From a virus (taxonomy: Duplodnaviria > Heunggongvirae > Uroviricota > Caudoviricetes): a stretch of DNA of 5,576 nucleotides. Below are positions 1,834-3,089 of this stretch, piece after piece. A model generated the notes under the pieces. That model was not told the origin of the DNA, did no database searches, and worked only from the letters and a program-made list of their open reading frames with translations. The DNA lies in IMG/VR virus record IMGVR_UViG_2531839103_000011, positions 1 through 5,576 of that record. One strand, given 5' to 3'. The position numbers were made by a program, and so were the translations under genes. The first letter of the stretch is position 1; every line of letters begins with the position of its first letter.

Positions 1834-1984
1834 GGATATATAGTGATGAGGGTTATGTTTTCTGTGTTTATAATTAACATGTTTATTTTTTGATGGTCAT
1901 GTATTGTGGAAGGTAGATAAAATGTTGCCTGGTGAATTGAAAATATTGATAATCAATCTTCATCATTAAATAAAAGGAGTGCTT
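1834..1984 (+). promoter_or_regulatory. AT-rich intergenic region downstream of Q; candidate promoter for the CPBP gene and/or late promoter pR' with qut
   Basis: 150 bp, very AT-rich. Contains -35-like hexamers TTGATG (1890-1895), TTGAAA (1937-1942) and TTGATA (1946-1951), -10-like TAAAAT (1918-1923) and TAAATA (1967-1972), and the strong SD AAGGAG (1974-1979). No single -35/-10 pair has ideal spacing, so exact elements are unresolved. Confidence 0.3.
1942..1960. promoter_or_regulatory. Fur-box-like palindrome (AATATTGATAATCAATCTT) in the CPBP promoter region
   Basis: Manual alignment to the 19-bp Fur consensus GATAATGATAATCATTATC gives 14/19 matches. The core ATTGATAATCAAT (1945-1957) is a 6-1-6 perfect inverted repeat. 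Lies 25-45 nt upstream of the CPBP start codon. Confidence 0.25.
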
Positions 1985-2803
1985 ATGTGGATTGTGTTAG
2001 TACTGTCACTGTCAACTCTCAGTTGGCATAAGGTAGTGGCTTTTTCATTGTTGACGGTGTCTGTTGTCCTGGCTGTGCTTAATGATATTATTGATTGGTC
2101 GGTGTTATTTTTTGTTGCTACAATCGTTTTTTTTATTATTTTGAAGTTCAACTGGAAATATAACGCCTGGGCTAAATCTATATATGAAGTTGGCATAGTT
2201 TTATCAGCCATAGCATTATTTTTCCATCTATGGCCAGGGTTTCACAATCCTGTAGTGCTAAATTCTGTTACTGTTGGCCCTCAAAGTACTCCCTATACAA
2301 TGTATTTTAATTTTGATAAAGCGCTGGTGCCATTTTTGTTAGTCCTGTGTACATCTTCTTTGTTTAAAAAAGAAGTAAAATCAGAAGTGTCTTTGTGGAA
2401 GTGGGGGGCTCTGTCGCTCTCTGTTCCTCTTATCCTGTTTTTGGCTGTTTTTTTTGGTGGATTAAAGCCAGAGATTCATTTTCCTGAGTGGTTGCCAGAG
2501 TTTATATTGGCTAATTTGTTTTTTGTGTCTCTGGCAGAGGAATCATTATTTAGAGGGTATATTCAATCACGGCTATCAGAAGTAACGTCTCCATTGGTTG
2601 CATTAATTGTGGCGGCTTTGTTGTTTGGTTTTTATCACTATTCAGGTGGTGCTTTACTTGTATTATTTGCCACGTTATCTGGTGTTGTGTATGGATTGTC
2701 ATGGATGTGGAGTGGGCGTTTGTGGGTTGCCACCCTTTTCCATTTTGGTTTGAATCTGTGTCACTTGTTATTCTTTACCTATCCATTTTTAAAACATAAT
2801 TGA
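1985..2803 (+). CDS. CPBP-family (CAAX protease / Abi, PF02517-like) intramembrane metalloprotease
   Basis: ATG 1985 with strong SD AAGGAG at 1974-1979 (ORF track starts at GTG 1979). 272 aa, mostly hydrophobic with several predicted TM helices. All three CPBP motifs present and intact: EExxxR (AEESLFRG, about 2534-2557), FxxxH (FGFYH, about 2624-2638), HxxxN (HFGLN, about 2740-2754). AT-rich codon usage contrasts with flanking genes. Confidence 0.8.
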   Translation: MWIVLVLSLSTLSWHKVVAFSLLTVSVVLAVLNDIIDWSVLFFVATIVFFIILKFNWKYNAWAKSIYEVGIVLSAIALFFHLWPGFHNPVVLNSVTVGPQSTPYTMYFNFDKALVPFLLVLCTSSLFKKEVKSEVSLWKWGALSLSVPLILFLAVFFGGLKPEIHFPEWLPEFILANLFFVSLAEESLFRGYIQSRLSEVTSPLVALIVAALLFGFYHYSGGALLVLFATLSGVVYGLSWMWSGRLWVATLFHFGLNLCHLLFFTYPFLKHN

Positions 2804-2883
2804 TTTTTTCTATGGTTTTAAATTTATAAGACTGAAAAATAGCAGGACGTGACATTTGCATGAAAAATATGCACGGCAAAGCA

Positions 2884-2897
2884 TTTACGTACGTAAA
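2884..2897. repeat. Perfect 14-bp palindrome TTTACGTACGTAAA (candidate operator / dimeric protein-binding site)
   Basis: Self-complementary over all 14 positions. Overlaps a candidate promoter (-35 TTTACG 2884-2889, 16-nt spacer, -10 TATGCT 2906-2911). A second inverted repeat TGCAT-N7-ATGCA lies just upstream (about 2857-2873). Confidence 0.45.
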
Positions 2898-2942
2898 AAA
2901 TCAGGTATGCTGTTAAGAGTGGTTATTTCGCCGCATAGCTTG

Positions 2943-2968
2943 ACCCCGCCTCTGAGCGGGTTTTTTGT
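2943..2968 (+). terminator. Rho-independent terminator, probably ending the CPBP transcription unit
   Basis: GC stem CCCGC (2945-2949) / GCGGG (2956-2960), 6-nt loop CTCTGA, followed by T6 (2961-2966). Lies 140 bp after the CPBP stop codon. Confidence 0.5.
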
Positions 2969-3089
2969 GCCCGCAAAGTAGCGCAGTGCGTTAAATGTGC
3001 TGGTAGTTATTAATACAGGTCTTTCAGCTTGCTGGCTTTTTCGACAAGAGTTATTGGTGTGTCACGTTAACCGGAAAGGGTAAAAAGAC

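Follow-up and report, generated by a model that had tools for sequence, protein, structure and literature searches.

A CPBP-family intramembrane protease gene between antiterminator Q and the late promoter pR' of a lambdoid prophage and its possible role in protecting the lysogen

Introduction

Why does a lambdoid prophage carry a gene for an intramembrane protease directly behind its late antiterminator gene Q? We analyzed a stretch of 5576 bp (IMG/VR record IMGVR_UViG_2531839103_000011; the whole stretch is called the window below), which represents the region for late control in a lambdoid prophage of the Escherichia coli O157 type. A preliminary description made from the sequence had reported an intact CPBP/Abi protease gene at 1985-2803 and had interpreted it as a self-contained, horizontally acquired cassette with an undescribed exclusion, abortive-infection or immunity function. 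These observations were confirmed in part and their interpretation was supported in part. Two new points are the most useful: the protease gene is located upstream of the late promoter pR', and the interval between Q and pR' is a variable cargo slot, which also houses a porin and a homologue of PD-Lambda-1. Our reading of the locus, to which we assign a probability of roughly one half, is that the gene is Q-independent cargo encoding an active intramembrane protease that would guard the envelope of the lysogen.

The protease gene and its product

The argument rests on the following features of the window.

1462-1833, plus strand: antiterminator Q gene, 123 amino acids (PF06530, Pfam E-value 8e-52)
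1834-1984, plus strand: AT-rich spacer between Q and the protease gene, 28.5% G+C
1985-2803, plus strand: gene for a CPBP/Rce1-like intramembrane glutamic endopeptidase, 272 amino acids (assigned by PF02517, motifs and model)
2884-2925, plus strand: late promoter pR', assigned by homology
2945-2966, plus strand: hairpin CCCGCCTCTGAGCGGG with a T-run in the pR' leader
3025-3041, plus strand: second terminator-like remnant CAGCTTGCTGGCTTTTT, predicted, read directly from the sequence

The protein matched the Rce1-like Pfam model PF02517 with 70.6 bits (cut-off 22.4, E-value 1.4e-19, residues 169-258), so that the hidden Markov model (HMM) search proposed earlier gave a match above the cut-off. 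The CPBP models of NCBIfam matched below their specific cut-offs only, and the protease therefore falls into no named CPBP subfamily. All three catalytic motifs are present, namely EESLFR at residues 185-190 (EExxxR), FGFYH at 214-218 (FxxxH) and HFGLN at 253-257 (HxxxN). In an alignment of 45 homologues the residues E185, E186, R190, F214, H218 and H253 were invariant and N257 was at least 90% conserved. An AlphaFold2 model built on this alignment reached a predicted local distance difference test score (pLDDT) of 95.4 and a predicted template modelling score (pTM) of 0.92. It shows eight helices, a bundle of long hydrophobic helices with a small beta element, in agreement with the multiple transmembrane segments described before. 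The only meaningful matches of the model in the PDB were 4CAD (MmRce1) and 6U0O (SpdC of S. aureus), both of the CPBP family, with probabilities of 0.94-0.99, modest template modelling (TM) scores of 0.37-0.47 and a sequence identity of 13-16%. Because of the Pfam match, the conserved motifs, the confident model and the structural matches to Rce1 and SpdC, we regard the protein as a bona fide member of the CPBP family that looks catalytically competent and for which proteolysis is predicted. SpdC and Abx1, also members of this family, are known to act as scaffolds without proteolysis (see also PMC3578759).

Outside the catalytic core, residues 81-117 contain the invariant motifs PGFHN and YxNxDKAxxPF in a predicted loop with the small beta element. 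This loop may form a substrate-binding cap. The N-terminal half that holds both motifs is specific to an enterobacterial subfamily. A strong Shine-Dalgarno sequence, which had been noticed earlier as well, is formed by AAGGAG at 1974-1979 and ends 5 nt 5' of the ATG of the protease gene.

The gene is already annotated and hence not new as a gene. Its product is identical to ECs_1085 of strain Sakai and to RefSeq WP_000265265.1 and belongs to PHROG 13291. In the annotation of O157:H7 genomes it appears as "CPBP family intramembrane glutamic endopeptidase", and ECs_1085 of the Sakai prophage Sp4 is called "phage CAAX amino terminal protease family protein". With these entries the term "undescribed" does not apply. 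Searches of the literature by accession, by Sakai locus tag and by family together with prophage, O157 or defence found no functional study of the gene.

Position of the gene relative to pR'

The late promoter was placed by comparison with Shiga toxin (Stx) phages. In H-19B and Sakai Sp5 TTTACGATCGTAAAAATCTGCATATCATGATAAGAGTGG overlaps the Q stop codon, and the T-run of the terminator tR' (GGCTGGCTTTTTT) ends 258 nt past a point located 4-6 nt 3' of the TATCAT hexamer. Sy et al. determined a pR'-to-tR' distance of 258 nt in the Stx phages of Sakai by differential RNA sequencing (dRNA-seq) and Term-seq (Sy et al. 2020, PMC7547250). Since the distance to the T-run of tR' matches this measured value, we take the hexamer pair in H-19B and Sp5 to be pR'. 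The distance was used for the placement; the coordinates of Sy et al. disagree with the current version of the Sakai record. In the window the homologous element was found once. It comprises the -35 hexamer TTTACG (2884-2889) within TTTACGTACGTAAA (2884-2897), a conserved CGTAAA spacer box, the -10 hexamer TATGCT (2906-2911) and TAAGAGTGGTTA (2914-2925), which is the conserved initial transcribed box. Transcription would start near 2917-2919.

With its end at 2803 the protease gene stops short of the pR' homologue, which begins at 2884, and it thus lies between Q and pR'. Because it is located upstream of pR', it is not expected to be a Q-dependent late gene, and its place is outside the Q-dependent late operon that carries the stx and esterase genes. 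Genes 5' of pR' would escape the control by Q, unlike stx. The earlier view of the locus as part of the Q-to-lysis hotspot holds insofar as there is a variable slot whose occupants include a porin, but the interval of the stx and esterase genes lies past pR' and the protease gene does not.

The hairpin at 2945-2966 had been described as a terminator about 140 bp downstream of the gene. The G+C-rich stem (CCCGCC...GCGGG) and the T-run are indeed there, about 28-50 nt past the pR' element, but judged by their conservation they are part of the pR' leader. Position and stem of the hairpin are the same in H-19B, Sp5, phiP27 and in phages with a porin, an ORF6N protein or a small protein in the slot. 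Moreover, the pR' element and the same hairpin are kept together in H-19B, Sakai Sp5, phiP27 and many prophages, whatever stands upstream. The hairpin was ruled out as the protease gene's own terminator, as it is present in aligned cargo-free phages.

The remnant at 3025-3041 is similar to the 3' half of tR' in Stx phages and has GCTGGCTTTTT in common with it; the T-runs of the two fall in different columns of the multiple alignment. A structural RNA in the pR' leader was considered but is not proposed, its fold being no more stable than those of shuffled sequences (z = -0.8). In the cargo-free Stx phages the Q stop codon is found inside the pR' spacer (CGTAAAAAT; H-19B 2926-2960 and Sp5 613-650), and the Q coding sequence therefore overlaps its own target promoter in these phages. 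The 123-amino-acid Q of the window is without the C-terminal extension that Q has there.

Linkage to Q, selection and expression

The low G+C content of the gene had been taken as a sign of horizontal acquisition. We confirmed the contrast, with 37.7% G+C in the protease gene compared to 53-54% in the genes for RusA, the DUF968 protein and the methyltransferase, although the earlier value of about 60% for the methyltransferase gene was an overestimate. The low-GC tract does not begin at 1834, as had been assumed, but already inside Q (41.7% G+C). At third codon positions (GC3) Q and the protease gene have 35.5% and 35.2%, respectively. The Q protein shares 82-85% identity with its counterparts in H-19B, 434-type and Stx phages.

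The window was compared with three prophage modules, L006 (E. coli TK3046, 95% identity of the protease), L013 (E. coli, 62%) and L015 (Shigella, 58%). All three consist of a Q gene (122-123 amino acids), an AT-rich spacer, the protease gene and the TTTACGTACGTAAA promoter 1016-1056 bp past the Q stop. The ratio of non-synonymous to synonymous divergence (dN/dS) of the protease gene was 0.13-0.23 among these modules and points to purifying selection. Synonymous divergence (dS) to L006 amounted to 0.104 for Q and 0.102 for the protease gene and was saturated in the other pairs. Because GC3 and synonymous divergence are equal and the two genes stay adjacent down to 58% protein identity, they have travelled together for a long time, without a recent insertion, as one old linked module. 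A recent foreign insertion beside Q was ruled out by the GC3 and dS common to both genes, and the idea of a recent and compositionally distinct cassette was not upheld. In IMG/VR the protease gene was present in 21 of 21 loci with a Q at least 93% identical to that of the window. In two of these loci the protease match starts only at residue 42 or 142, and the gene may be disrupted there. A 15-codon open reading frame (ORF) at 1846-1893, previously regarded as a chance occurrence, was kept only in the near-identical L006 and was not found in L013 and L015, in line with that judgement. L013 has a long pR' leader with a sequence closely similar to the 74-nt StxS (~5919-6300); no stx was evident in the stretch examined.

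The 151-bp spacer separates two genes of the same strand and contains no terminator. Therefore, co-transcription of the protease gene with Q after induction is expected. Besides, a promoter of its own in the spacer is a plausible candidate. In the window a candidate sigma-70 promoter (TTGCCT-17-GATAAT) is located at 1925-1953, and in all four diverged spacers the candidate promoters end 31-51 nt 5' of the ATG. The promoter score was reached by 190 of 1000 shuffled sequences for the window, 37 of 1000 for L006, 148 of 1000 for L013 and 0 of 1000 for L015, the promoter of which is near-consensus. The upstream region is thus AT-rich, as had been stated, but the promoter-like hexamers reported there are no better than chance. 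Of the proposed self-contained moron the absence from related phages was verified, whereas a terminator of its own was not found. As to the other features of a moron, the promoters range from 190 to 0 in 1000 shuffles, and the G+C content differs from that of the RusA and methyltransferase genes while GC3 equals that of Q.

These data bear on the explanation that the protease is a helper of the lytic cycle. It would be expressed after induction only, on one transcript with Q that starts at the early rightward promoter, and would process a membrane protein of the host or the phage ahead of late expression, e.g. for lysis timing or receptor removal. The common strand with Q, the short spacer without a terminator, the Q-like composition and synonymous divergence and the adjacency in all 21 IMG/VR loci are consistent with such a helper, as is the chance-level promoter prediction in the window. 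Nevertheless, phages with a close Q and lysis module have no protease or unrelated cargo, among the deposited phages none that was isolated and forms plaques carries the gene, and the L015 spacer has a near-consensus promoter. We consider a purely lytic function improbable.

The interval between Q and pR' as a cargo slot

We surveyed the IMG/VR loci with this Q family (L019-L098) for the conserved pR' motif. The distances between the Q stop and pR' fell into classes of -12, ~490, ~870-1060, ~1050, ~1530-1680, 2353 and 3014 bp. Their contents were as follows.

-12 bp: no cargo (H-19B)
~490 bp: small secreted basic protein
~870-1060 bp: ORF6N-domain protein
~1530-1680 bp: NmpC/Lc-type porin (PF00267) on the reverse strand, the commonest class
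2353 and 3014 bp: compound inserts

In H-19B and Sp5 the interval holds no gene at all, and none of the IMG/VR loci with a Q of 83-87% identity has the protease gene. The protease is optional cargo, as relatives of the same Q family hold other genes or nothing at this place. In phiP27 the gene L22 (L002 1750-2979), which lies between Q and pR' and upstream of stx2e, encodes a homologue of PD-Lambda-1 (PADLOC E-value 2e-89) with T5orf172/MUG113 domains and is labelled 'hypothetical'. The ORF6N protein of the slot showed weak matches to the PADLOC candidate PDC-S05. The O157 relatives of the window flanks carry a DUF1133 antiterminator block instead of the entire Q-protease-pR' block. The NmpC/Lc-type porin is a lysogenic-conversion gene that alters the display of phage receptors. 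The comparison of related prophages that had been proposed thus bore out the variability of the interval, which holds the protease, a porin, an ORF6N protein, a small protein, a PD-Lambda-1 homologue or nothing. From its contents the interval appears to be a hotspot for variable cargo, and the genes known to occupy it serve lysogenic conversion or defence. Because the alternatives in the slot include a porin and a PD-Lambda-1 homologue, a lysogen-protective role of the protease is a reasonable hypothesis, for which these contents are the strongest evidence, albeit indirect.

The same occupants could suggest that the protease is a single-gene anti-phage system, acting by superinfection exclusion or abortive infection. 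Upon infection by another phage it would keep the DNA from entering or would destroy a membrane protein that is essential. The PD-Lambda-1 homologue of phiP27, the ORF6N protein with its weak PDC-S05 matches and the NmpC/Lc porin argue for this explanation, and so does the purifying selection on the gene in prophages. However, the search of a defence database gave no PADLOC model match, no paper tying CPBP or CAAX proteases to phage defence was found in the literature, and the widespread core-chromosomal homologues are atypical of defence genes. Moreover, the family owes its label 'abortive infection' to a historical mis-annotation (PMC3578759), and the historical tie of CPBP proteins to abortive infection invoked in the preliminary description is a naming artefact. 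An anti-phage system of this kind is in our view unlikely.

Distribution and homologues

The full cassette was detected in 572 of 5426 complete E. coli genomes, i.e. about a tenth, and nearly always with at least 99% identity. The listed carriers include O157:H7, O111:H8 and O103:H2 strains, and the segment 1834-3060 of the window is 100% identical to O157:H7 genomes. Full-length homologues of about 50% identity occur across Enterobacterales as single chromosomal genes in unrelated neighbourhoods, such as modF-X-galE in Hafnia, cupin-X-permease in Dickeya and gpmM-X-envC in another genome (X being the homologue). Among the neighbourhoods examined there was no conserved partner and no toxin gene. 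Matches of the protease to plasmids in tblastn searches were dismissed as chromids or mislabelled pieces of chromosome.

Two further phage copies were found in other contexts. One of them, with 55% identity, stands behind a lambda-type Q (PF03589); the other, with 47%, adjoins genes for a tail fibre and a lytic polysaccharide monooxygenase (LPMO). The family has thus been taken up repeatedly as phage cargo. In the locus of the 55% homologue (L137 3700-4834) Q and the protease gene are separated by a promoter-like element, TTGATT-17-TATGCT, and by a hairpin plus T-run; here the cargo may lie downstream of its pR', in the order opposite to that of the window.

The chromosomal homologues are relevant for the explanation that the prophage captured a host envelope gene, which would provide a membrane maintenance function missing from E. 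coli or would hitch-hike with Q, and which would have no role in conflicts with phages or toxins. The single-gene, full-length homologues on Enterobacterales chromosomes and the family-specific invariant motifs beyond the catalytic core are compatible with such an origin. On the other hand, dN/dS values of 0.13-0.23 over saturated synonymous divergence make pure hitch-hiking unlikely, and among phages the gene is found repeatedly, after Q genes of two unrelated families as well as next to tail-fibre genes. We give a captured gene of this kind little credence.

Proposed role of the protease

This anatomy is well founded: the identity of the gene, its intact motifs, the purifying selection on it, its place relative to pR' and the variability of the slot are shown by the data. 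From it we infer an expression pattern, a kind of substrate and a protective role. In the explanation that we prefer, the gene is a single-gene, moron-like cargo for an inner-membrane CPBP protease in the variable slot of an H-19B/82-type late-control module. After induction it would be transcribed along with Q, as transcripts of the early rightward operon read through into it, and in the lysogen there is probably also a weak promoter within the AT-rich spacer that would serve the gene. Such transcripts would end at the hairpin of the pR' leader. As its most likely role, the protease would act in lysogenic conversion, altering the envelope so as to protect the host, and would cleave or sequester a membrane-inserted peptide or protein. 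CPBP proteins were described to confer immunity to peptide toxins, e.g. McsI against microcin S in E. coli (PMC3316575). We rank immunity to a membrane-active peptide toxin (a microcin or bacteriocin) slightly above phage exclusion.

Several points weigh against a Q-independent protective protease. The promoter prediction of the window is at chance level in the shuffle test, and expression data for the gene were not found in the literature. None of 50,697 deposited phage genomes contains the gene, and its known carriers include prophages with insertion sequence (IS) elements and with genes that are frameshifted or incomplete; the prophage of O157 PV15-279 and Sakai Sp4 are examples. As the preliminary description had remarked for want of a convincing partner, no toxin, peptide or partner gene adjoins the protease gene in the window, in the 20-kb flanks of the O157 prophage or in the contexts of the homologues. 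In PADLOC-DB 2.0 there was no match for the protease up to an E-value of 1 or for its 62% and 58% relatives up to 0.01. Less than 1% of the Abi-domain proteins in bacteria occur within bacteriocin loci (PMC3578759). Finally, the fixed core positions in Hafnia and Dickeya fit a housekeeping role in the envelope as well as a protective one.

A broader version of the protective role is conceivable, which we put forward tentatively. The Q-to-pR' interval of H-19B/82-type lambdoid prophages might be a dedicated lysogen-protective hotspot and the CPBP protease a new single-gene system within it, whose catalytic glutamates and histidines would cleave either a peptide toxin or a membrane-inserted component that a superinfecting phage brings along. 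As a porin and a PD-Lambda-1 homologue are already known from there, the interval could be mined as a hotspot. If the protease is protective, it would bring a new protein family into prophage-encoded immunity and would give the misleading "Abi" label a genuine instance. It would then be the first CPBP ('Abi'-named) protein encoded by a prophage of enterohaemorrhagic E. coli that truly acts in defence against phages or toxins.

Other features of the window

Upstream of Q and downstream of the pR' leader the window contains the following features.

39-1088: DUF968/NinG-like gene
1101-1472: RusA gene
from 3090: frameshifted small TrmB-like ORF
3437-4495: N6-adenine DNA methyltransferase gene
4536-4611 and 4692-4768: two tRNA genes, anticodons CAT and TCT
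4878-5086, plus strand: small RNA STnc100 (Rfam 175 bits, above the gathering score)
5088-5147, minus strand: anti-GcvB small RNA AgvB (Rfam 56.6 bits, above the gathering score; overlapping AsxR match)
3' of the small RNAs: DUF1737 gene, then the start of a nanS-p type esterase gene

The ORF at 3090-3452 (120 codons) is a frameshifted copy of a 65-amino-acid TrmB-like ORF (phiP27 L23). The frameshift is caused by the loss of one G after the ATG at 3234-3236 (deletion after 3236), and the undisrupted frame would stop just 5' of a terminator at 3273-3296. The PGAP annotation also marks the TrmB-like gene of O157 PV15-279 as frameshifted. At the place of the two tRNA genes of the window Sakai Sp4 has three (ileZ, argN and argO). 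STnc100 and AgvB are placed between the tRNA genes and the DUF1737 and nanS-p genes.

No complete E. coli genome contained at least 80% of the window in one place. The window flanks match O157 prophages (L005, O157 LSU61) at 96%, but the Q-protease-pR' block is swapped there, and the window is therefore a mosaic that is absent from the set of complete genomes.

Comparison with known systems

The protein shares with the CPBP/Rce1-like proteases (PF02517; 4CAD, 6U0O) the HMM match, the three motifs and the architecture of a multi-helix membrane protein. It differs from 4CAD and 6U0O by the low identity of 13-16%, the modest TM-scores and its subfamily-specific N-terminal half. The CPBP immunity proteins, i.e. 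McsI as well as SkkI and PlnI of lactic acid bacteria, belong to the same family and are likewise single membrane proteins, directed against a membrane-active peptide. Their genes, however, adjoin the toxin gene, whereas there is none beside the protease gene of the window. McsI was absent from the plasmid matches in tblastn and is thus no close relative of the protease.

In comparison with the pR'-tR' leader and StxS of Stx phages, positions 2884-2972 of the window are homologous to the promoter and the first part of the leader, including the early hairpin. In contrast to these phages, the window is without the central and 3' part that gives rise to the 74-nt StxS, and its leader is about 130 nt shorter than 258 nt and keeps a remnant of the 3' half of tR'.

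The protease gene also resembles the cargo genes found between Q and the lysis genes of lambdoid phages (the nmpC/lc porin, stx and nanS-p) and the PD-Lambda-1 homologue in being optional, variable cargo beside the late-control module. The stx and nanS-p genes differ from it, as they are located downstream of pR' and tR' and depend on Q, while the protease gene lies upstream of pR'. The nmpC/lc porin and the PD-Lambda-1 homologue have no sequence in common with the protease, but they occupy the very same interval between Q and pR' and do so with the same Q family.

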